Positions 1 through 63,691 of a stretch of 64,000 bases of DNA are shown in pieces. Within the stretch, counting starts at the first letter, position 1; each line of letters opens with the position of its first letter. The position numbers were made by a program, and so were the translations under genes. Location of the stretch: positions 1,178,001 to 1,242,000 of the forward strand of contig NC_135916.1 of the NCBI RefSeq assembly GCF_964194155.1, in the 5' to 3' direction. Origin of the DNA: Cetorhinus maximus (Eukaryota). The notes beneath the pieces are model-generated. The model was given only the letters and a program-made list of their open reading frames with translations, was not told the origin of the DNA and did no database searches.

Positions 1-321
1 AGATGGACCACCCGACATTGAGTGAGGCACCGGAAACAAAAATGACTAAACACAGCCCCGTTGACCCTGAGGGTAGATGGGAACACCTCCAGCTAGAATT
101 TCCACTCCAAGTCACTCCACCATCCTGACTTGGAAATATATCCTGTTCCTTCACTGTTGCTGGGGAAAAAATTTGGAATTGACTCCCTAACAGCACTGTG
201 GGTGTACCTACACCACGTGGACAGCAGGGGTTCAAGAAAGCAGCTCACCACCACCTTCTCAAGGGCAACTAAATGGTGGCACAGCCAGCAAAGCCACATC
301 CCGTGAATGAATTTAAAAAAA
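1..321 (+). mobile_element. 3' part of tRNA-derived SINE with LINE-derived tail
   Basis: Near-identical to the 3' part of the SINE at 59041-59665; tail CAGCTCACCACCACCTTCTCAAGGGCAAC...CACATCCCGTGAATGAATTTAAAAAAA. Confidence 0.7.
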
Positions 322-1194
322 GATATTATATGGGATCTTTGGTGTTGAATTTATGGTGTTGCTTTATGAATGCTGGGTGCACTGAAGGATGAATTCTGTA
401 AATTTCAATCAGCTTTAATACCTGGTATTTAAATTACAGGCGATGTTCTACTCTTGTGACATGAAAGGGCTGCCCTTCAATCTGATAATGGCTGTGATTG
501 TTGACTGCAATTGGTGGACCTGCAATTCAGCAGTACTGAGTAGGAGTGTACTGTAGTAAAATTATTCCACCTCCCCTGAGTGTCTGACCATTGGATGGAG
601 CATTTGTACCTGGGTTTGAGATCAATTTGAGCCTGACTATTTCTGTTCTCGGTGATGGTGGAGCTGATGTTCTGTCTGTATCTCTGCACTCTCGGAGTAA
701 CATCGTACCTGCTGTCAGTTAGAAAGAGGTGGCTAGACGTTTATTTTTCCTGGGATATCATCAGCTTGAAACTGATCCCTTCATTGATTTGCCTGGAGGA
801 AGAAACATAAGTCTTGTAACACAAAATCAGCAGAGGACATTGAAAGACAATAGGTCAACATAATCTTTCAACTGACAATAAATAAAAAAAATATATCTAG
901 ATGCAAAACATAACGATACAATAAATACTACAGTGTCTGATTCCACGTCAGCAACCTGCTTTGGTAGTTTTCAAGCAATTGAGTGACACTCAGAAACAAT
1001 CCACATCTGTATGGCTCCAAGGGTGACACTCCCCGAGGATACAAAGACAGTTCAGATATCAATATCCAGCTCTCAGCCGGTGCTAAAATGTTTATATCTT
1101 AATAGCTGGTGCTTCCAAAGCGTGACCCCTACATGGTTACTCTCCTCCTTACTCTCTGCCTGTTACCACTGTTCACTGTCCAAATGCCGACAAG

Positions 1195-1560
1195 TTGCAT
1201 GAATCAGCAGCTATACTTGGAATATGCATTACAGGTTTGAGGGGAGAAAATCCCAATAGTTTACAATTGCAGCTTGCTCAGGTTCTGTCTCCCTCAGCAG
1301 GGCCACACACAGCCCCATAAAGGCCTCTCCACGACCACCCGCTCACTCCAAGTTCCGGAACACGTTCCGCTTCGCTCCGCCTCTTACAAACAGCCCCCGG
1401 TTCTCCCTGAACTTACCCCGAGTCAATGATGATTTCTGTGTCCACACTGACAAACCGGTGCCCTGCTGGAATCAGAACGCTGTTTACTCGCTTACCCGGG
1501 CCCTAAGATTTCCATTTCTATCTGTTTGAAACAAAGGTCTCCCGCTCACTGAGTGAAAGG
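1195..1560 (-). other. Conserved ~350-bp element, candidate first exon(s) of a minus-strand transcript (unit 1)
   Basis: Nearly identical at 20115, 44885 and 60540, while the unit 1/2/3 flanks are clearly diverged. Minus-strand donors GG|GTAAGC (1495) and GG|GTAAGT (1416); ATG in gaaATGg context at 1515. Confidence 0.6.
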
Positions 1561-1593
1561 CCCTCAAAGGTCAGTTCTTGGGAGAAATGAGGG

Positions 1594-1700
1594 GCGCATG
1601 CGCTCTTCTAGCCATGTCTGAGGAAACAGAAGGAGGGCAGCAATGCGCAAGCGCTTCCCTGGAACAGACGTCACAGAACAAACGTCTTTTGCTCCGCCCC
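1594..1700. promoter_or_regulatory. NRF1-type promoter (two GCGCATGCGC-like sites, CRE half-site, GC box)
   Basis: GCGCATGCGC 1594-1603, TGCGCAAGCGC 1644-1654, ACGTCA 1668-1673, CTCCGCCCC 1692-1700. The NRF1 pair recurs in all four units. Confidence 0.6.
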
Positions 1701-1864
1701 TCAGTCAATGTTCTCCAGCTTGAGCATCACAATGGGTCTGTGTGGAACGGGCAGAGTTTCAGGCAGGTGGACGATTCCTGAATGAAGCTCAAACTGATAT
1801 CGCTCCCTGCAGCATCTTAGCTGTTCATTCACCGGTTTAGGAAACCAATCCGCCCAGTGAATCT

Positions 1865-3847
1865 ATGTCAAAAAAAAACAGAATTACCTGGAAAAACTCA
1901 GCAAGTCTGGCAGCATCGGCGGAGAAGAAATCAGTTAACGTTTCGAGCCGTCTCAATTTCTCTGCTCCTCTCACCCATTCTAATCTGTCTCTCTCTGAAC
2001 TCACTGCACTCCGTTCTCTCAGGTCCAACCCCAACATTGTCATCAAACCCGCTGACAAATGTGGTACTGTTGTTGTCTGGCGCATGGACCTCTACCTCGC
2101 GGAGGCTGAGCGTCAACTCGCAGACGTTTCCTCCTACCTCTCCCTGGACCATGACCCCACCACAGAACATCAAGCCATTGTTTCCAGGACTGTCACTGAC
2201 CTCATCTCCTCTGGAGATCTTCCTCCCACAGCTTCCAACTTGATAGTCGCCCAACCTCGGATGGCCTGCTTCTACCTCCTACCCAATATCCACAAACAGA
2301 ACTGTCCTGGCAGACCGATCGTGTCAGCCTGTTCCTGCCCCACGGAACTCATTTCTCGTTATCTTGACTCCCTTCTCTCTCCCCTTGTCCAGTCCCTTCC
2401 CACCTACATCCGTGATTCCTCTGACACCTTACGTCACATCAACAATTTCCAGTTCCCTGGCCCCAACCGCTTCCTCTTCACCATGGATGTCCAATCCCTC
2501 TACACCTCCATCCCCCACCAGGATGGTCTGAGGGCCCTCAGCTACTTCCTTGAACAGAGGCCCCAACAATCCCCATCCACCACTACTCTCCTCCGTCTGG
2601 CTGAACTTGTTCTCACACTGAACAATTTCTCCTTTAACTCCTCTCACTTCCTCCAAATAAAAGGTGTGGCTATGGGTACCCGCATGGGCCCCAGCTATGC
2701 CTGTCTCTTTATGGGGAATGTGGAACATTCCTTGTTCCAGTCCTACTCCGGCCCCCTCCCACAACTCTTTCTCCGGTACATCGATGATTACTTCGGTGCT
2801 GCTTCATGCTCTCGTCGGGACCTGGAAAAATTTAGTAATTTTGCTTCCAATCTCCACCCCTCCATCATCTTCACATGGTCCATCTCTGACATTTCTCTTC
2901 CCTTCCTTGACCTCTCTGTCTCAATTTCTGATGATAGACTGTCCACCAATATCCATTACAAGCCTACCGACTCCCACAGCTACCTCGACTACAGCTCCTC
3001 ACACCCCGCTTCCTGTAAAGACTCCATCCCATTCTCTCAGTTCCGTCGCCTCCGTCGCATCTGTTCTGATGACGCCACTTTCAAAAACAGCTCCTCTGAC
3101 ATGTCCTCCTTCTTCCTTAACCGAGGTTTTCCATCCACGGTCGTTGACAGGGCCCTCAACCGTGTCCGGCCCATATCCCGCGCATCCTCCCTCACGCCTT
3201 CTCCTCCTTCCCAGAAACATGATAGGGTCCCCCTTGTCCTCACTTATCACCCCACCAGCCTCCGCATTCAAAGGATCATCCTCCGCCATTTCCGCCAACT
3301 CCATCATGATGCCACCACCAAACACATCTTCCCTTCACCCCCCTTGACGGCATTCCGTAGGGATCGTTCCCTCCGGGACACCCTGGTCCACTCCTCCATC
3401 ACCCCCTATTCCTCAACCCCCACTTATGGCACCTCCCCATGACCACGCAGAAGATGCAACACCTGTCCCTTCACTTCCTCTCTCCTCACTGTCCAAGGGC
3501 CCAAACACTCCTTTCAAGTGAAGCAGCATTTCACTTGCATTTCCCCTAACTTAGTCTACTGCATTCGTTGCTCCCAATGCGGTCTCCTCTACATTGGAGA
3601 GACCAAACGCACACTGGGCGACCGTTTTGCGGAACAACTGCGGTCTGTCCGCAAGAAAGACCCAAACCTCCCTGTCGCTTGCCATTTCAACACTCCACCC
3701 TGTTCTCTTGCCAACATGTCTGTCCTTGGCTTGCTGCATTGTTCCAGTGAAGCCCAACGCAAACTGGAGGAACAGCACCTCATCTTCCGACTAGGCACTT
3801 TACAGCCCACTGGGCTGAATATTGAATTCAACAACTTTAGATCTTAA
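1865..3847 (+). pseudogene. Penelope RT + GIY-YIG endonuclease ORF broken by TGA at 3440-3442
   Basis: Motifs IKPADK, GRPIVS, TMDVQSLYTSIP, GVAMGTRMGP, RYIDD, FLDL; after the stop NLVYCIRC..LYIGET..RFAE. The other copy has TGC at this codon. Confidence 0.9.
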
Positions 3848-4358
3848 ACTCCCCCTCCCCCCATCCCCACCCCGTTTCTTTCCCCCACCCCCCCACCCGC
3901 TTTTTTTTCAATAATTTATATAGATTCTTCTTTCCCCACCTATTTCCATTATTTTTAAATCTAAAACTAAAACCTTGTTAGTCTTTCCACCCCACCCCCA
4001 CTAGAGCTGTACTTTGAATATCCTGTTTTCCATTCTTAATTAGCACTTTTCTCAGACAAAGACCACCACCTTCAACACCTCTTTGATCCTTTTGTCTGTG
4101 ACGACTTTTGATTATCTGCTCACACCACACCCTCAATGTGTCTCTTTCCCCCCCCCCCCACCCCACCCACCTTAAACCAATTTATATTTCTCCCTTGTTG
4201 AAACTATGCTGCAGTTCTGCCGAAGGGCCATGAAGGCTCAAAACGTTAACTGATTTCTTCTCCGCCGATGCTGCCAGACTTGCTGAGTTTTTCCAGGTAA
4301 TTCTGTTTTTGTTTTGGATTTCCAGCATCCGCAGTAGCTTTCAGCTTTTTGTTTTTAT
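1869..4358 (+). mobile_element. Penelope-like retroelement, 5'-truncated, with inverted pLTR piece
   Basis: RT plus GIY-YIG coding region; 1870-1949 is the reverse complement of 4235-4310; 14-bp TSD CAGTGAATCTATGT at 1855-1868 and 4359-4372; empty site in unit 2 near 20760. Confidence 0.92.
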
Positions 4359-7215: not shown

Positions 7216-7803
7216 ATGACCGATACTGCAGCCGCCGAAACGGCTCCTCCAGCCGCTCCCGCCGCCCAGGTCAAGACTCCCAAGATGAAGAAGAAGGCGG
7301 CTCCCCGGAGCAGTGCAGCCGGTCCCAAGCTGGGCGAGCAGATCCTCAAGGTTGTGGCGGATTGCAGCGATCGCAAGGGGATGTCGCTGCCCGCGATCAA
7401 GAAGGCGCTGCGCGGCAAAGGGCTGGATGTGGAGAAACTGGGCTCCCAGATCAAGCAAAGCATCAAGAGGAATGTGAAGTATGGCTTCCTGGTTCAGGTC
7501 AAGGGCACGGGCGCCTCGGGCTCCTTCAAAGTCCCTAAGAACCCAACCCCGGGGAAAGTGGGAAAGAAGGCGAAGGCAGCAGCTGGCAAGAAATCTCCAG
7601 TGAAGAAAGCGGCAGCCAAGAAGGTGACAGCAAAGAAAGCAGCGGCCAAGAAGACTCCAGTCAAGAAAGCAACGGCCAAGAAGACTCCAGTCAAGAAAGC
7701 AACGGCCAAGAGGACTCCAGTCAAGAAAGCAGCGGCCAAGAAATCCCCAGCGAAGAAAGCAGCGGCCAAGAAAACAGCCAAGAAGGCGGCAACTCCCAAA
7801 TAG
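7216..7803 (+). CDS. H1: Histone H1, C-terminally truncated (195 aa; possible pseudogene)
   Basis: Globular domain ([25 protein letters not shown]) and K/A/P tail. AAG>TAG at 7801-7803; frame continues to the paralogous TAA at 7900-7902. Confidence 0.9.
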
Positions 7804-19410: not shown

Positions 19411-20114
19411 GTGGGTCTACCATTCAGCAGTACCGAGTAGCAGTGTTTTGTGGGGAATATAATTCAGTCTCCCCTGTGTGTTAGCCTACTGGATTGATCA
19501 TGTGTATCAGGGTTTGAGTTCAATTCGAGTCTGACTATTTCTGCTCTGGGTGATGGTCACAGTGATGTTCTGTCTGTATCTGTGCACTCTTGGAGTAGGA
19601 TCGTACCTGCTGCCAGTTAGAAGGAGATAGCTGCACCTCTGTGTTGGCTGGTGGAACTTGAGATTGAAACTGACCCCTTCATTAACCTGCCAGAGAGGAA
19701 GAAAGATATCTCCAGTAAGGCAAAATCAGCTGAGGTCAGTAAAAGGCAATAGATCAATGTAATATTTCAACTGATAATCAATTTCAAAAATACTGTACAT
19801 ATCATGGCGGACAACGAAAAAACTACAGTGTCTGATTCCACTTCTAACTATTGAGTGAGATTCAGAAACAACCCGCATCTGCACTGCTCCAAGTGTGTCA
19901 CTACGCGGGCCCAGAGATATTGGTACAGGACAGATTTCAATTTCCAGCTCCCTTTGTAAGAACCGCCAACTCAATCTAACTGTGGAAGGTACAATGTTTC
20001 TTTGAGACGCCTCAGCTGAACAGCTGGTGCCTGCAACACGTGTCGTTAACATTACTGCTCCACTCCTTACTCTCCGTCTGTTTCCACGATTCACTGTCCA
20101 AAAGCCAACACGTT

Positions 20115-20575
20115 GTGTGAATCAGCAGCTAAACTTGGAATATGCATTACAGGATTGAGGGGGGATATCCCAATAGTTTTCAATTGCAGCTTGCTCAGGT
20201 TCTGTCTCCCTCAGCAGGGCCACACACAGCCCCAGAAAGGCCTCTCCCCGACCACCAGCTCACTCCAAGTTCCGGAACACGTTCCCGCTCCGCTCCGCCT
20301 CTTACAAACAGCCCCCCGGTTCCCCCTGAACTTACCCCGAGTCAATGATGATTTCTGTGTCCACACTGACAAACCGGTGCCCTGCTGGAATCAGAACGCT
20401 GTTTACTCGCTTACCCGGGCCCCAGTATTTCCATTTCCGTCTGTTTGAAACAAAGGTCTTCCGCTCGCTGAGTGAAAGGACGTCAAGGGCAGTGGTTGGT
20501 GGGAAGGGAAGCGCGCATGCGCCCGACTAGTCACCGAGAAATTCCAAAACGCAGGGCTGCAATGCGCATGTGCTG
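20115..20575 (-). other. Conserved ~350-bp element plus NRF1 pair (unit 2)
   Basis: Matches 1195-1560; micro-ORF 20411-20434; GCGCATGCGC 20513-20522 and TGCGCATGTGC 20563-20573. Confidence 0.6.
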
Positions 20576-21933
20576 TTGGAAACTAACTAAGAACAAAACC
20601 AGGTCATCTGGTCCTTCCCCATGTCAATTTCCTCAGCCTTGAGCATAGGAATTGGAATGTGGGGAACGGGCAGAGACGTTACGAGCAGGAGGGCCATCCC
20701 TGTATTAAATCCAAACTGGGCGTCTTTGCTGTTCATTCGACGGTCTCCGCAAATTAATCCACATGTCGAATAGGTCTGTTTGCTGTTATAGCTCAGAACT
20801 TAATATCAGATCGTAAAAGTCTCAGGTTAATATAATCAGATTGAAAATGTCAGTCACTGACTGTCGTATTCAACAATTTTAGTCGAAGATTTCCCGAGAG
20901 TTCCAGAGTTTATAGAATGTTATATTTCATTATTATTGCCTCAACACCACTCAGTTTCCTGGACTGTGGGACAGAAATGTATCTGCCTCTCCTCCAATGT
21001 TAATGAGAGATGAGGCCTGGTATTTCGCACCGCTGGGGGATCTATAAGCCTTATCGATCAGCTTCAGAATATTCAGTGTTTCAAAAAGAAAACCTCTCAA
21101 TCTTCTAAACTCCAATGACGATTATTCCAACTTGATCATGATTTCCTCACCAGTCAACAACTGGAAGCTGCTCATGAACATTCCCTGAACTGTATCAAGG
21201 GATCGATATTATTCAGTTGTCCCCCATCCCTCTACTGCTGTTGATGTGCATGTTACTAATGTTACTGATAAGATTATATAAACTGATACTCACACTCCTC
21301 CCATGTGAGGTGAGGGACTGTCACTGTTCATTCTCCTCTCAGAAATTCAAGTATGACATTTCATTAGATTATCTCCAGTCAAACATCGAATTCTGCTCTG
21401 AAAAACTCTGTCACTGTCAGGAACGTGACGATGGGAGAAGTCATCGCAGCCACCGCGACTCAGGAGGGAATCGAGGAGGACCCACTGTCAAAGAATGGAA
21501 TAGCCCCAAGCATTACATTGCTGTAGTGTTTCCATCCCTCCCTCATCCTCAAACCTAAAAAACAGAGAGAGGGGAAGAGGCAGTGTCTCCAGGAGTGCAC
21601 CAAATCTGCGAGGGATACTCTTCTGAAAGTGGAATTTAAAGAAAAAGCAGCTGATTGCTGAGTAAATCCTGGGAGCAGACTCGGAGGGAGGAGAACCGAA
21701 GCGGTGAGTGTAAACCTAGCTTACCTTGAGGATTCGCAGTCTTGTCTCTAGGGAGCAGACTCGGAGGGAGGAGCAGCAGAGTGGTGACCTCGGGGCACAG
21801 AGTAACTGAAGCCAAAACTGAAAAAGTGACGTCACATGAAAGCTGTGACCTGATTGGTTGGTAGGAAATCTGCACCAAATTTGAAAAAAAAAACACGGCA
21901 AAGCTAATTAATAAATTAATTGTCTAAGTACAG

Positions 21934-28416: not shown

Positions 28417-28640
28417 CATTTCGGGCCTGATCTACGAGGAGACCCGCGGGGTGCTGAAGGTTTTCCTGGAGAATGTGATCAGGGATGTTGTCACCTACAC
28501 CGAGCACGCCAAGCGGAAGACGGTCACCGCCATGGATGTGGTGTACGCTCTGAAACGCCAGGGCCGCACTCTCTATGGATTCGGCGGCTGAACAAATCGA
28601 CCCGACTCTATAACAAAACCCAAAGGCTCTTCTAAGAGCC
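28417..28640 (+). pseudogene. H4: Histone H4 pseudogene, 5' deleted
   Basis: Promoter CTTCCTCAG joined directly to [10 protein letters not shown]...GFGG (stop 28589-28591). TATA, ATG and ~45 codons missing; A69V; stem-loop 28625-28640 kept. Confidence 0.93.
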
Positions 28641-43950: not shown

Positions 43951-44884
43951 GTATGATACTGTGTGGGATCTTTGGTGTTGAGTCTATTGCATTGCTTTAT
44001 GAATGCTGGGTACATTCAAGGATTAATTCATTGAATTTCAATCAGCTTTATTTCCTGATATTTAAATTACAGCCAATGTTCCATTCTTGTGACATGCATG
44101 GAGTGAGCTTCAATTTGATATTGGTTGTGAGTTTGGACTGAAATTGGTGGACCTGCCATTCAGAGGTACTGAGTAGGAGTGTATTGTGATTATTCCAACC
44201 ATCTCCCCAACCCCCGCCTCCCTTCTGAGCGTTTGACTATTGGATTGAGCACATGTATCTGGTATGAATTCCATTTGATTCTGACTATTTCTGTCCGTGG
44301 TGACGGTGGAAATGATGTTCTGTCTGTATCTCTGCACTCTGTGAGTAATATCATACCTGCTGTCAGTAACAATGAGATGGCTGCACTTTTATTTTGGTTG
44401 GGAAATCAACAGCTTGAAACCGATCCCTTCATGTATTTGCCTAGAGGAAGAAACATATCTCTTGAAAGTCAAGATCAGCTGAGGCTTTGAAAGAAAATAG
44501 ATCAACGTAACCTGGCAACTGATAATCAATTTTTATAATGCTCTACAAATCGTAAAGGACAATAAAGAAGTACAGTCCCTGATTCCACTTCAGCACCCTG
44601 CTTCGGTACTTTTCAAACATTTGAGTAACATTCAGAAACAGTCCTGTCCTGTCCTCCTCCAAGGATGTCACTACCCGAGGGGACAGGTACATTGGTGCAG
44701 GTCAGGTTTCAATTTCCAGCTCCCATTGTAAGAGCCGTCAACAAAAACCAACAGCCGCTGCGACAATGTTTCTTTAACACTTATCACTTGAAAAGCTGGT
44801 GCCTGCGATGGGTGATATTTACATGATTGTTCCCCATCCTCACTGTCCGCCTGTTTCCACTGTTCACTGTCCAAATGCCGACAA

Positions 44885-45362
44885 GTTGCATGAATCAGCA
44901 GCTATACTTGGAATATGCATTACAGGTTTGAGGGGAGAAAATCCCAATAGTTTTCAATTGCAGCTTGCTCAGGTTCTGTCTCCCTCAGCAGGGCCACACA
45001 CAGCCCCAGAAAGGCCTCTCCCCGTCCACCCGCTCACTCCAAGTTCCGGAACACGTTCCCGCTCCGCTCCGCCTCTTACAAACAGTCCCCGGTTCCCCCT
45101 GAACTTACCCCGAGTCAATGATGATTTCTGTGTCCACACTGACAAACCGGGGCCCTGCTGGAATCAGAACGCTGTTTACTCGCTTACCCGGGCCCTAAGA
45201 TTTCCATTTCTATCTGTTTGAAACAAAGGTCTCCCGCTCACTGAATGAAAAACTTCAATGGCGGAGTCTGGGAGAAGGGCAGCGCATGCGCTCTTCTAGT
45301 CAGGTCTGAGGAGTTGAATGAGGGCAGCAATGCGCATGCGCTTCTCTGGAATTTTACGTCAC
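44885..45362 (-). other. Conserved ~350-bp element plus NRF1 pair (unit 3)
   Basis: Matches 1195-1560; micro-ORF 45184-45207; GCGCATGCGC at 45282 and 45332; ACGTCA 45356. Confidence 0.6.
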
Positions 45363-45519
45363 AGAATCAACATCATTTGCTCCTCCCCTCAGTCAATGTT
45401 CTCCAGCTTGAGCATCACAACTGGGGCTGTGTGGAACGTTTCATCTAAGGCAGCATCCTGGTTATCTGAATATCCCTGGTCACCCTTGGTTCTCTGGGCT
45501 CGTTACTCCTTCCTCCTTC

Positions 45520-56712: not shown

Positions 56713-57279
56713 TTATGCTCCTTTTGTCTCTCTTATGTGTGAATGGACTTTTCTCTCTATCTGTCATTTTTCAATATGTACTTGTGCACATTGACTGGCA
56801 CTCACAAGTATCTGGCATGGTGTTAAAGGCTAATTTTGTACATATCCAGTTTTAGCCATTCTCTTAGGATAGCCTTGGCTTTAAGTTGTAATATTCGGCT
56901 TCTGGTATGGAAGTGCACATTTTACCTGTACCTGACCCTTTTAGATATGAGATTCTGGTACTGAAATTGTCTGCTCGTTTCTAGCCTCTGATGTGAGCAT
57001 GATTTTTACTTTTGTTAAAGTTAGCATTTTTAATGAGACTCTGCATTTACTGTGAATTTCAGTATCTGATCTACGATTGTGGATTTTAATCAGTCCTGAT
57101 TTGTTTCTGTTTGGGATTGATATCTCTGTTATAGGAGTGATATATTCCATTCTGTTATTGTCTCTTTCTAATGAGGTGAACGATCCTTTTTGATCAGAAT
57201 CTGTTTAATTTGGTGCCTGAATATGGGATTTGCTTTGCAATTGTCAGATTTTGACATGAAGGAATGTTTATAATCTGTA

Positions 57280-57515: not shown

Positions 57516-57858
57516 TCCTCCCCCTGTACGTGTTAATTTCCAACAAGTGAATATGGCATCACTGATCACCTGCCAATGTCTGACAAATATGTTTCACTTC
57601 TATTCTGACAGGGTTTCAACGTAGAATTTGGTGTGCGTGTGTGCACATGTGCATGTTTCTAGAATGGAAGAAATTTATTTTTTCTGCACTTTACATAGAA
57701 TGCTATGCGAATGTCAGTTCAGCCTGTATCTGTCACTTTTTAACATGTTACTACGAGTCTTATTCTTTACCTGTCTATGAATGGGGATTTTAAAATGCAC
57801 CTAGTTATTTGCTGCTGTGTGACTTTTTTCTTTTATAGATGTTTGGAATTAATTATGG

Positions 57859-58130
57859 GTTTTTAAAAAAAATATATACTTTATTCAAAAATTATCTGAA
57901 AGAACATTTCTAAATCGCCATCACAAAAAGTGCAATCAGATTCAACTTTTACACATGGATCAAGAGTTGCTTCTATACAATCAATGAATATTACAATCAA
58001 TTCAATATGGTCATTACAGGCAGTCAGACAGCGCAATGATATTGGAGTTATCAACATACATCATGTTGCACTTTTGAGGTGTTTCAATACTATTACTATT
58101 CAGTGCAGATATTTTTTTGTGAGCCGTACA
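57859..58130 (-). mobile_element. Probable LINE (L1/Tx1-like) 3' fragment
   Basis: Insertion relative to the paralogous site near 42395; starts with a T run and TTTATT; A-rich against the T-rich background. Confidence 0.45.
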
Positions 58131-59040
58131 GCTTTACTCTGGGAATTTAACTCTCTGTAATGCACTTGTGGCTATTACTCTGCACCTGCCAGTGCCTGAC
58201 ATGTGAGGATGCATTTTGCATTCACTGTTGCTGACATGTAAAGCAAATTTTACTACTTAACTCTCAGTTACTGGTATATAGATGTGCAGATTTTATTCTG
58301 TATCTGTAATTCTGTGATATGTCAGTTTGATTCATTTTCCTGTTGTTTGGCTCAGGGTCAGAAATATGAGCATGGAAAAAAAATATGTTGAAACACTTAG
58401 GCTATTTTAAATGAATGAGAATTTAATTATTTGCTTTCAATCCCCAGAATGAGAATGTGCCCTATGCTTATCATATTCTTGTATGTGAGTATTGTCTTTC
58501 CTCCAGGTCTGTATGCACCTTGTAGGTCATGGTCGGTTTTGCTGTGAACATGTCAGCCTGTATTACTTGATTGTGATGTTCACATTGCAGCTTTCAATTT
58601 AGTGTGTGAGCATGGACCATTCGCTCCCTCCCCCCAACCCCTCAACCCAAACCTACAGATTTTGATGCATGTTCATGTGTGATTTTACCGTAGCTATCAA
58701 CGTCTGCTTTCTGGGTATCCATTTTCTTCCTATTTTTAAAATTCTGTTATGGGAAACTTGATTTTATTCTACACCTCTCTATCGCTGGTATGTGTCTGTG
58801 GTTTTACAATGTAAGCATCTGCCCCTGTCATGGGAATTCAGGTTTCTTCTGTATCTGTCAGTCTCTCCTACGACAGTGCTGTAATGTTATTTGCCGTACT
58901 TGTCAATATCTGCTTTGTCAGTTAAGGTTTAACCTATCTTGTTTGTAGAGATCTGTTGATATAACTATTAGTGAGTATATTGCCTGGCACGTGATGTGTA
59001 TGTGTGTCTGTCTTAATGAATATGTACTTTATCATTATCA

Positions 59041-59665
59041 GGGGGAGGCGATGGTGTTGTGATGTTGTCATTGTTGTCACTATTAATCCAAAGACCTAGG
59101 GTAATACTCTGGGGACCCGGGTTCGAATCCTGCCGAGGTTTGGCGGATTGTGAATTCAATAAAAATCTGGAATTAAAAGAATAATGGTGACCATTGTCGA
59201 TTGTTGTAAGAACCCACCTGGTTGACCAATGCCGGAAACCTGTTGTCCTTACTTAGTCTGGTCTACATGTGGTGTTGTGTTAGACCCACTTGGCCACTCA
59301 CTTGTAATAAACTGCTAAAAAGTCACAAAAATGGAATGGAATCAGATGGACCACCCGACACTGACTGAGGCACCGCAAACAAAAATGACTAAATTCAGCC
59401 CTGTCGACCCTGAAGGTAGATGGGAACACCTCCAGCTAGAATTTCCACTCCAAGTCACTGAACGATCCTGACTTGGAAATATATCCTGTTCCTTCACTGT
59501 CGCTGGGGAAAAATTTTGGAACTGCCTCCCTAACAGCAGTGTGGGTGTACCTACACCACGTGGACAGCAGGAGTTCAAGAAAGCAGCTCACCACCACCTT
59601 CTCAAGGGCAACTAAATGGTGGCACAGCCAGAAAAGCAAACATCCCGTGAATGAATTTAAAAAAA
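59041..59665 (+). mobile_element. tRNA-derived SINE with LINE-derived tail
   Basis: B box GGTTCGAATCC ~59120-59130; core ACCATTGTCGATTGTTGTAAGAACCCACCTGGTT; A-rich end. Confidence 0.75.
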
Positions 59666-60539
59666 GATATTATATGGGATCTTTGGTGTTGAATTTATGG
59701 TGTTGCTTTATGAATGCTGGGTGCACTCAAGGATTAATTCTGTAAATTTCAATCAGCTTTAATACCTGGTATTTAAATTACAGGCGATGTTCTACTCTTG
59801 TGACATGAAAGGGCTGCCCTTCAATCTGATAATGGCTGTGATTGTTGACTGCAATTGGTGGACCTGCAATTCAGCAGTACTGAGTAGGAGTGTACTGTAG
59901 TAAAATTATTCCACCTCCCCTGAGTGTCTGACCATTGGATGGAGCATTTGTACCTGGGTTTGAGATCAATTTGAGCCTGACTATTTCTGTTCTCAGTGAT
60001 GGTGGAGCTGATGTTCTGTCTGTATCTCTGCACTCTCGGAGTAACATCGTGCCTGCTGTCAGTTAGAAAGAGGTGGCTAGACGTTTATTTTTCCTGGGAT
60101 ATCATCAGCTTGAAACTGATCCCTTCATTGATTTGCCTGGAGGAAGAAACAAAAGTCTTGTAACACAAAATCAGCAGAGGACATTGAAAGACAATAGGTC
60201 AACATAATCTTTCAACTGACAATAAATAAAAAAATATATATCTAGATGCAAAACATAACGATACAATAAATACTACAGTGTCTGATTCCACGTCAGCAAC
60301 CTGCTTTGGTAGTTTTCAAGCAAATGAGTGACACTCAGAAACAATCCACATCTGTCTGGCTCCAAGGGTGACACTCCCCGAGGATACAAAGACAGTTCAG
60401 ATATCAATATCCAGCTCTCAGCCGGTGCTAAAATGTTTATATCTTAATAGCTGGTGCTTCCAAAGCGTGACCCCTACGTGGTTACTCTCCTCCTTACTCT
60501 CTGCCTGTTACCACTGTTCACTGTCCAAATGCCGACAAG

Positions 60540-61042
60540 TTGCATGAATCAGCAGCTATACTTGGAATATGCATTACAGGTTTGAGGGGAGAAAATCCCA
60601 ATAGTTTACAATTGCAGCTTCCTCAGGTTCTGTCTCCCTCAGCAGGGCCACACACAGCCCCAGAAAGGCCTCTCCCCGACCACCCGCTCACTCCAAGTTC
60701 CGGAACACGTTCGCGCTCCGCTCCGCCTCTTACAAACAGCCCCCGGTTCCCCCTGAACTTACCCCGAGTCAATGATGATTTCTGTGTCCACACTGACAAA
60801 CCGGGGCCCTGCTGGAATCAGAACGCTGTTTACTCGCTTACCCGGGCCCTAAGATTTCCATTTCTATCTGTTTGAAACAAAGGTCTCCCGTTCACTGAGT
60901 GAAAGGCCCTCAAAGGTCAATTCTTGGGAGAAATGAGGGGCGCATGCGCTCTTCTAGCCATGTCTGAGAAAACTGAGGGCAGCAATGCGCATGCGCTTCC
61001 CTGGAACCAACGTCACAGAACAGACGTCTTGTGCTCCGCCCC
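60540..61042 (-). other. Conserved ~350-bp element plus NRF1 pair (unit 4)
   Basis: Micro-ORF 60838-60861; GCGCATGCGC at 60940 and 60987; ACGTCA; GC box. Confidence 0.6.
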
Positions 61043-61210
61043 TCAGTCAATGTTCTCCAGCTTGAGCATCACAATGGGTCTGTGTGGAACGGGCAGAGTT
61101 TCAGGCAGGTGGACGATTCCTGTATGAAGCTCAAACTGATATCGCTCCCTGCAGCATCTTAGCTGTTCATTCACCGGTTTAGCAAATCAATCCGCCCAGT
61201 GAATCTATGT

Positions 61211-63691
61211 CAAAAAAAAAACAGAATTACCTGGAAAAACTCAGCAAGTCTGGCAGCATCGGCGGAGAAGAAATCAGTTAACGTTTCGAGCCGTCTCAAT
61301 TTCTCTGCTCCTCTCACCCATTCTAATCTGTCTCTCTCTGAACTCACTGCACTCCGTTCTCTCAGGTCCAACCCCAACATTGTCATCAAACCCTCTGACA
61401 AAGGTGGTACTGTTGTTGTCTTGCGCATGGACCTCTACCTCGCGGAGGCTGAGCGTCAACTCGCAGACGTTTCCTCCTACCTCTCCCTGGACCATGACCC
61501 CACCACAGAACATCAAGCCATTGTTTCCAGGACTGTCACTGACCTCATCTCCTCAGGAGATCTTCCTCCCACAGCTTCCAACTTGATAGTCGCCCAACCT
61601 CGGATGGCCTGCTTCTACCTCCTACCCAATATCCACAAACAGAACTGTCCTGGCAGACCGATCGTGTCAGCCTGTTCCTGCCCCACGGAACTCATTTCTC
61701 GTTATCTTGACTCCCTTCTCTCTCCCCTTGTCCAGTCCCTTCCCACCTACATCCGTGATTCCTCTGACACCTTATGTCACATCAACAATTTCCAGTTCCC
61801 TGGCCCCAACCGCTTCCTCTTCACCATGGATGTCCAATCCCTCTACACCTCCATCCCCCACCAGGATGGTCTGAGGGCCCTCAGCTTCTTCCTTGAACAG
61901 AGGCCCCAACAATCCCCATCCACCACTACTCTCCTCCGTCTGGCTGAACTTGTTCTCACACTGATCAATTTCTCCTTTAACTCCTCTCACTTCCTCCAAA
62001 TAAAAGGTGTGGCTATGGGTACCCGCATGGGCCCCAGCTATGCCTGTCTCTTTATGGGGTATGTGGAACATTCCTTGTTCCAGTCCTACTCCGGCCCCCT
62101 CCCACAACTCTTTCTCCGGTACATCGATGATTACTTCGGTGCTGCTTCATGCTCTCGTCGGGACCTGGAAAAAATTATTAATTTTGCTTACAATCTCCAC
62201 CCCTCCATCATCTTCACATGGTCCATCTCTGACACTTCTCTTCCCTTCCTTGACCTCTGTCTCAATTTCTGATGATAGACTGTCCACCAATATCCATTAC
62301 AAGCCTACCGACTCCCACAGCTACCTCGACTACAGCTCCTCACACCCCGCTTCCTGTAAAGACTCCATCCCATTCTCTCAGTTCCTTCGCCTCCGTCGCA
62401 TCTGTTCTGATGACGCTACCTTCAAAAACAGCTCCTCTGACATGTCCTCCTTCTTCCTTAACCGAGGTTTTCCATCCACAGTCGTTGACAGGGCCCTCAA
62501 CCGTGTCTGGCCCATATCCCGCGCATCCTCCCTCACGCCTTCTCCTCCTTCCCAGAAACATGATAGGGTCCCCCTTGTCCTCACTTATCACCCCACCAGC
62601 CTCCGCATTCAAAGGATCATCCTCCGCCATTTCCGCCAACTCCATCATGATGCCACCACCAAACACATCTTCCCTTCACCCCCCTTGACGGCATTCCATA
62701 GGGATCGTTCCCTCCGGGACACCCTGGTCCACTCCTCCATCACCCCCTACTCCTCAACCCCCACTTATGGCACCTCCCCATGCCCACGCAGAAGATGCAA
62801 CACCTGCCCCTTCACTTCCTCTCTCCTCACCGTCCAAGGGCCCAAACACTCCTTTCAAGTGAAGCAGCATTTCACTTGCATTTCCCCTAACTTAGTCTAC
62901 TGCATTCGTTGCTCCCAATGCGGTCTCCTCTACATTGGAGAGACCAAACGCAAACTGGGCGACCGTTTTGCGGAACAACTGCGGTCTGTCCGCAAGAAAG
63001 ACCCAAACCTCCCTGTCGCTTGCCATTTCAACACTCCACCCTGTTCTCTTGCCAACATGTCTGTCCTTGGCTTGCTGCATTGTTCCAGTGAAGCCCAACG
63101 CAAACTGGAGGAACAGCACCTCATCTTCCGACTAGGCACTTTACAGCCCAATGGGCTGAATATTGAATTCAACAACTTTAGATCTTAAACTCCCCCTCCC
63201 CCCATCCCCACCCCGTTTCTTTTCCCCCCCCCACCCGCTTTTTTTTCAATAATTTATATAGATTCTTCTTTCCCCACCTATTTCCATTATTTTTAAATCT
63301 AAAACTAAAACCTTTAGTCTTTCCACCCCACCCCCACTAGAGCTGTACTTTGAATATCCTGTTTTCCATTCTTAATTAGCACTTTTCTCAGACAAAGACC
63401 ACCACCTTCAACACCTCTTTGATCCTTTTGTCTGTGACATCTTTTGATTATCTGCTCACACCACACCCTCAATGTGTCTCTTTCCCCCCCCCACCCCACC
63501 CACCTTAAACCAATTTATATTTCTCCCTTGTTGAAACTATGCTGCAGTTCTGCCGAAGGGCCATGAAGGCTCAAAACGTTAACTGATTTCTTCTCCGCCG
63601 ATGCTGCCATACTTGCTGAGTTTTTCCAGGTAATTCTGTTTTTGTTTTGGATTTCCAGCATCCGCAGTAGCTTTTAGCTTTTTGTTTTTAT
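61211..63691 (+). mobile_element. Penelope-like retroelement (duplicate), frameshift near 62255
   Basis: RT in 61199-62272, then RT thumb plus GIY-YIG in another frame to 63188; TSD 61197-61210 and 63692-63705. Confidence 0.92.

Follow-up and report, generated by a model that had tools for sequence, protein, structure and literature searches.

A shark histone array whose units carry a spliced, apparently non-coding gene, and the likely conversion origin of that gene's uniform block

Histone units on contig NC_135916.1 (hereafter C39) of the 3.99-Gb Cetorhinus maximus genome are accompanied by a spliced, apparently non-coding gene that is co-amplified with them. We favor, with some confidence, a reading in which the first exon of a likely non-coding minus-strand gene, repeated in each histone unit, and the beginning of its intron make up a nearly invariant block, kept uniform by recurrent conversion just downstream of the start site; the role of the gene, if any, would be local. 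The array is a natural setting in which to test whether a housekeeping-type promoter helps replication-dependent histone units to stay active and, for cartilaginous fish, in which the role of PRDM9 is unsettled, whether conversion between paralogs is initiated at transcription start sites. It also carries a caution, namely that near-identity of paralogs can mimic a conserved RNA gene. In the literature, supplements aside, we found no account of a spliced non-coding gene within the histone repeats of sharks or other vertebrates.

Sequences and comparisons

The window is the 64,000-nt stretch C39:1178001-1242000, and positions given without a contig refer to it. Module copies were sought genome-wide with a 23-base pattern allowing ≤3 mismatches. 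Thirty copies, from C39:840-1402 kb and C39:1740-2040 kb (C39:1402-1740 kb was left out), were aligned and sorted by left flank into types T1 (n=11), T2 (n=11) and T3 (n=7), plus one diverged copy at 1921.9 kb. T1, T2 and T3 together are termed standard copies (n=29), the diverged (45th) copy being set aside. Two small runs from a related species (organism A), X1 and X2, came from two studies and were classed as RNA by guess; they consist of contigs that carry no strand, start or level and are about 91-94% alike to the window. They shared 6-7% of the words, and no sharing run was recorded as RNA. DNA run X3 served as the control. Run X7 (11 million letters, with the species label of the DNA runs) leaves the module uncovered and was given no weight either way. 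Contig depth was not used as a basis for ranking parts of the locus.

Distribution of the module

Three histone units lie in the window, followed by the beginning of a fourth, with H1, H4 and H3 in each unit and H2A in two of the three. Alignment placed module copies in units 1, 2, 3 and 4 at the positions given by a first-pass annotation of the sequence (1195, 20115, 44885 and 60540). That annotation had described a block of ~350 bp nearly unchanged between diverged flanks, as is borne out by units 1, 2 and 3, which are pairwise 95-97% identical over 1195-1560 and 74-76% identical over 520-1150. Unit 4 belongs to the unit 1 subtype, with 96-100% identity throughout, and is a near-duplicate, not an independent copy. 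The copies in the window are as follows.

1..1720 region, minus strand: unit 1 copy, described feature by feature below
19690..20620, minus strand: unit 2 copy (T2), donors 20414 and 20335, NRF1-type sites 20513 and 20564
44440..45390, minus strand: unit 3 copy (T3), donors 45187 and 45108, NRF1-type sites 45282 and 45332
60137..61000, minus strand: unit 4 copy (T1), donors 60841 and 60762, NRF1-type sites 60940 and 60987

The 23-base pattern matched the genome 46 times, 45 of them within C39:981-1922 kb, and the 46th, outside the array, is at chance level (5 control matches). The module (n=45) is confined to one 0.94-Mb histone array on C39, so it is no dispersed transposon, an origin that the first-pass annotation had named as counting against its own reading; the best 40 DNA matches listed likewise all lie on C39. 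The same annotation had placed the module at the head of every histone unit. This is correct for 28 of the 30 H1 genes in C39:840-1402 kb and 1740-2040 kb, which have a standard module a few kb upstream, but not for the first H1, which has none upstream, or the last, which has only the diverged copy, 13 kb off.

Transcript structure and splicing

The features of the unit 1 copy, and exon 2 of unit 4, are listed here.

1572..1720, minus strand: promoter region, CpG-retaining, 46-81% identity between unit types
1594..1603, strand not applicable: NRF1-type palindrome 1, invariant in 29/29 standard copies
1645..1654, strand not applicable: NRF1-type palindrome 2, core kept, some variation
1496 to about 1571 (short form) or 1417 to about 1571 (long form), minus strand: exon 1, from joints and cover limit, start approximate
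1490..1495, minus strand: splice donor 1, used (X2), 703-nt GT-AG intron, invariant in 29/29 standard copies
1411..1416, minus strand: splice donor 2, used (X2), 624-nt intron
793..1416, minus strand: intron 1, acceptor (pyrimidine tract and CAG) ending at 793
1256..1500, strand not applicable: probable conversion island, from the last part of exon 1 into the beginning of intron 1
1..792, minus strand: 5' part of exon 2, running on past the window start; contigs over 300-793
57880..60136, minus strand: exon 2 of unit 4, about 2.2 kb, whole exon seen, X1/X2 contigs near-continuous

A fifth, non-histone, spliced unit on the minus strand, pointing away from H1, had been predicted from sequence, with donors at 1495 and 1416 and a start near 1540-1580. 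Both donors are present, and in contigs of the related species both are joined to an acceptor at 793 that the prediction had not named. Together with a 5' cover limit near 1570 in the RNA-type runs of that species, the two junctions agree with the predicted unit. One X2 joint, 791 to 1495, skips 703 bases and has CT..AC plus-strand ends, equivalent to a minus-strand GT-AG intron; the skip occurs in two X2 contigs and in none of DNA run X3. A second X2 joint, 784 to 1411, has two letters in between that correspond to a T3 exon-2 start joined to 1417, i.e. donor 1416, so that the T3 exon-2 start is carried by a junction seen in an RNA-type run (this joint is tabulated without a DNA-run column); its counterpart in unit 4 is 60128 to 60757 (X2). 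Both main joints are listed for X2 only, and the T1-like exon-2 contigs of X1 and X2 end at 792-793, the exon boundary. The strand of the transcript is assigned from the intron ends only.

Donor 1 is lost from the diverged copy (C39:1921904-1922300), in which a donor-like site is present near 1256. X1 and X2 each include a contig with diverged-copy sequence that joins 792 to about 1256, and the homolog of the diverged copy in the related species accordingly has a third donor near 1256 with the same acceptor. About 1356-1480 is likewise missing from the contig sequence of that homolog, through either a deletion or a further splice. A partial inverted copy of exon 2 lies at C39:1930735-1931705.

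In unit 1 (mapped over 300-1865), cover by X1 and X2 ends by 1571 whereas X3 continues, a weak hint of the transcript start. The start is only roughly placed, because the loose end of an X1 contig at 1567 is similar to the diverged copy. In unit 4, contigs tile 58042-60137 (X1) and 58151-60136 (X2) and the module is covered, while the stretches 56800-57261 and 60958-61111 are empty in X1/X2 and covered in X3. Exon 2 of this unit contains short dispersed-repeat insertions and a candidate AATAAA at 57880-57885, a putative 3' end; the spliced forms measure about 2.35-2.43 kb. As for an lncRNA, the transcript is longer than 200 nt (in the related species, runs classed as RNA by guess cover exon 1 together with some 2.1 kb of exon 2) and has a canonical spliceosomal intron in X2 that is absent from DNA run X3. 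RNA-type contigs also cover the intronic 1256-1416. In unit 2 (T2) the acceptor AG has become TG, and another CAG 4 nt further on is a candidate only; the canonical acceptor is lost in all T2 copies (11/29).

Promoter motifs

Two NRF1-type palindromes about 50 bp apart had been reported, and 10-mers that we take to be NRF1-type are found at 1594 and 1645 (spacing, 51 bp), outside the most uniform part of the block. Among the aligned copies 126/160 promoter sites vary. Since the first 10-mer is unchanged in 29/29 copies while 126 of the 160 bases around it vary, the pair looks selected, and no element other than the NRF1-type motifs stands out as likely selected. The second carries one C-to-T change in 11/29 copies, which are those of T2. 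Other motifs named by the first-pass annotation had mixed outcomes. The CHR-like TTTGAA is found at 1525. The ETS palindrome TTCCGGAA is present at 1353, lies in intron 1 and is intact in 25/30 copies. The CRE site does not hold up, as a CRE-like sequence is complete in just 6/30 aligned copies.

Conversion and constraint in the uniform block

The most uniform part of the module is 1256-1500 rather than the whole block 1195-1560. The divergence within and between types in successive regions is given below.

Exon 2: within 0.027, between 0.250
3' intron: within 0.035, between 0.271
1151-1255: within 0.041, between 0.114
1256-1416: within 0.029, between 0.035
1417-1500: within 0.020, between 0.027
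1501-1560: within 0.037, between 0.106
Promoter: within 0.083, between 0.381

The flanks of the three unit types thus differ by 25-27%, versus 3.5% at 1256-1416. There, none of the 161 sites is a fixed difference between types, and the types have six polymorphisms in common. The flank tree recovers every type as a clade (100/100), whereas trees of 1256-1500 recover monophyletic types in 0/200 bootstraps. Even the diverged copy, 26-44% different elsewhere, differs by about 5% at 1256-1416 (91-98% identity). Between the related species and the window, the module has 59/753 differences, or 42/753 without the private alleles of unit 1 (5.6-7.8%), and the flanks have 151/2120 (7.1%; Fisher P=0.52 raw, P=0.15 adjusted), in a low-powered test based on four overlapping contigs (the longest listed) of unassigned paralog type. 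The adjusted comparison (5.6% versus 7.1%, P=0.15) leans toward mild constraint, and at this power the island is not measurably more conserved across species than its flanks. Because the cross-species difference is near the flank level and the types are not separated, the island appears to mutate about normally and to be swapped among units. Lost type structure, shared polymorphisms and no matching constraint (the last from the low-powered comparison) are the marks of a conversion island, and recurrent gene conversion is the most likely cause of the near-identity.

The first-pass annotation had treated the near-identity as a sign of function, which is not supported, since the block behaves as a conversion island with no measurable excess of cross-species conservation. 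It had also set against its own reading a single recent conversion tract with no cross-species conservation; the pattern comes close to this, except that conversion seems to have been recurrent and not one tract. Conversion and selection are compatible, in that selection could keep the island convertible. H3, H4, H2A and the first 110 codons of H1 show only 0-7 synonymous codon differences between unit types, and by this measure the histone coding regions are homogenised likewise, down to synonymous sites. The sense strand of the island is G-rich (64 G to 27 C, a skew equalled in 11% of window tiles) and would favor R-loops.

Coding capacity and RNA class

The longest ATG ORF of the spliced forms encodes 58 aa, versus a shuffled mean of 61, and exon-2 substitutions are spread evenly over the three codon positions; no long ORF or codon signal was found in the transcript. 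A profile search of the exon-2 frames against 1.84 billion proteins yielded no relatives but one spurious match, a trichohyalin-like protein of Amia (P0001), in which weak repeats were summed in an unrelated coiled-coil protein, and the transcript frames had no Pfam match. The transcript accordingly has no apparent protein-coding capacity, a 23-codon ORF being a putative exception.

In an Rfam search of the window only histone stem-loops reached the gathering score. No rRNA family (5S or rDNA) was among them, and a histone repeat linked to rRNA genes was rejected. The best Rfam score in 1000-1800 was E=2, there was no match in 57700-61100, and no stable fold was found (z-scores +0.37 and +0.83). 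The first-pass annotation had seen by eye no resemblance to 7SK, 7SL, RNase P/MRP or U snRNAs, in agreement with the search. With no Rfam match and positive fold z-scores, a known structured RNA or snoRNA host (7SK, SRP, RNase P/MRP, snRNA, snoRNA, miRNA) was rejected, as was a plus-strand C/D snoRNA (ATGATGA at about 1426), which scored E=5-9 only and has its box changed in 3/30 copies.

A pseudogene origin from H2A, H2B or H3 is unsupported, the tests being negative or equalled by antisense controls: the 5' part of H2A gave z=2.3-3.0 and antisense controls up to z=3.2, the H2A fragment of the second histone cluster (below) gave about 0, and the best tblastn match had E=0.5. A zinc-finger gene origin was rejected on finding no C2H2 motif in the window, the retrieved C39 sequence or the first 20 stretches of contigs C32 and C288. 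In part of exon 2 the top lag is 41 (z=2.4-2.9 among 115 lags).

Relatives on a second histone cluster

Contig C32, which contains a second histone- and tRNA-rich cluster, has homologs of the acceptor and of exon 2 over its first 165-300 bases (33 pattern matches; homology score 478 versus shuffled 256±23). The C32 element is found downstream of H2A, at about 1 kb from intact genes or 0.7 kb from fragments, and follows a CCAAT-rich stretch resembling the H3 promoter (z about 4). The NRF1 module is absent from the C32 copies inspected. From these homologs of the exon-2 start, which lack the NRF1 module, the transcript body seems older than its present promoter. The second cluster is large (C32:8.9-21.3 Mb) and comprises histone and tRNA genes together with H2A fragments; at least 40 copies of the exon-2-start element (40 scored among 281 candidates) occur in it, often in pairs 18 kb apart. 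A non-array match at C32:21658263, from a noisy acceptor pattern search, has no similarity to the locus.

Proposed mechanism and alternatives

In the mechanism that we favor, a CpG-retaining promoter with two NRF1-type sites would start Pol II near 1570. In the related species, splicing joins 1495 or 1416 to 793, and the RNA would then run about 2.2 kb through the spacer toward the preceding unit. Open or transcribed chromatin may attract breaks downstream of the start, and their repair from another unit would homogenise 1256-1500, as it would the histone coding regions. Selection appears to act on the promoter motifs alone. Any role would therefore probably be local, in keeping the unit active or unmethylated while the RNA body drifts freely; if the gene is of any importance, it is probably as a constitutive promoter acting locally rather than through its RNA sequence.

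An unlikely alternative is that the gene is a pure passenger, an old promoter captured in the repeat that fires and is spliced without use and is kept by conversion and lack of methylation. Near-neutral cross-species divergence fits this, as do an exon 2 that differs by 23-30% between types and is broken by repeats, the altered acceptor of T2 copies and a related C32 element without the NRF1 module. However, two 10-bp CpG-containing motifs too short for conversion tracts persist amid 38% between-type divergence, the diverged copy in another species uses the same acceptor, and the module is upstream of 28/30 H1 genes whereas several units lack H2A.

We consider it more doubtful still that shark-type histone clusters have, in each unit, an lncRNA gene of their own that is transcribed by Pol II and old in the lineage, and that has a relative under a different promoter on C32; its NRF1-driven, cell-cycle-independent transcription would keep the units open and seed the conversion that maintains the array. 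If so, the gene would be a built-in maintenance element for histone repeats.

There is only a small chance that the RNA itself acts, as a scaffold of the histone locus body or as a small-RNA precursor from intron 1256-1416 or the repeat-bearing exon 2, with selection holding the block. The 91-98% identity of 1256-1416 even in the diverged copy, its cover by RNA-type contigs although intronic, the presence of the transcript in a second species and the old homologs of the exon-2 start on a second histone cluster would suit such a role; the missing Rfam match and unremarkable fold, normal within-type diversity and no significant cross-species constraint argue against it. A micropeptide gene or decayed coding gene is highly improbable: in the donor-1495 form a 23-codon ORF begins at an exon-1 ATG of strong context, with its stop at the same place in 11/11 T1, 7/7 T3 and 5/11 T2 copies (given the canonical acceptor), three T1/T2 differences in exon-1 codons that are all synonymous and a T1 frame open for about 87 codons past the stop, but exon 2 has no third-position bias, the acceptor of T2 copies is displaced by 4 nt, the frame is not kept in the diverged copy, the sole library match is spurious, Pfam is silent and the tests for H2A, H2B and H3 origin were negative or equalled by antisense controls.

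Comparison with known systems

lncRNA genes with CpG-island/NRF1 promoters have conserved promoter motifs, a short first exon and alternative donors, followed by a long, poorly conserved last exon and no ORF. The module shares these promoter and exon traits; unlike such genes, it occurs in 45 tandem copies inside a histone repeat and has a conversion island that mimics conservation.

In the available text of PMC13525598, the non-histone members of histone repeat units are rRNA genes, with 5S rRNA or rDNA genes among histone quartets or quintets in Artemia, Mytilus, boll weevil and Potamopyrgus; the words "shark", "lncRNA" and "noncoding" do not occur in that text. As in the rRNA-linked repeats described there, the shark module is a non-histone unit co-amplified in the repeat and exposed to concerted evolution, but those genes are of Pol I/III type with structured RNAs, whereas the module is spliced, of Pol II type and without an Rfam match. 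Its homogeneous island within diverged spacers also resembles the concerted evolution of histone coding regions (PMC13525598, same text), from which it differs in having no coding constraint to hold it.

Promoter-directed recombination is described in species without PRDM9-directed recombination in PMC5519329. Exchange in the module is similarly concentrated near a start site in CpG-rich DNA, although here it is between paralogs and is deduced from sequence comparison. SSXRD is absent from PRDM9 in some cartilaginous fish according to PMC5519329, and the ghostshark PRDM9 is counted as complete in PMC8892340, so the status of PRDM9 in this group is ambiguous between the two. An SSXRD search of the present genome gave no match, but its control was silent too. 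Histone and tRNA clusters occur together in a stingray, as stated in bioRxiv 10.1101/2025.06.08.657570.

Other features of the histone arrays

The C39 array changes orientation: its modules are plus-strand as far as 1645.7 kb and minus-strand between 1706.5 kb and 1895 kb, so that the switch falls between about 1646 and 1706 kb. Its tandem units lack H2B (C39:968-1402 kb and 1740-1940 kb). In the retrieved C39 sequence H2B occurs only at 952437 and 936313, plus a 45%-identical fragment at 872940, and it is present in the C32 cluster. The unit-1 H1 (7216-7803) has an early stop and encodes 195 aa, versus 217-218 in units 2 and 3; of the unit-2 H4 (28417-28591) only 175 bases at the 3' end remain, as is also the case in two further T2 units. 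A divergent H1 of 225 aa lies outside the array at C39:884000-883323; in its first 282 bases its DNA is 71% identical to that of the array H1. Directly upstream of the promoter in T1 units (1865-4315 and 61211-63650) is an element with a reverse transcriptase and a GIY-YIG-like ORF, presumably Penelope-like. Pattern matches on C288 belong to an unrelated 81-bp satellite, present in about 240 copies at C288:339571-360000 beside 23-bp and 35-bp arrays.
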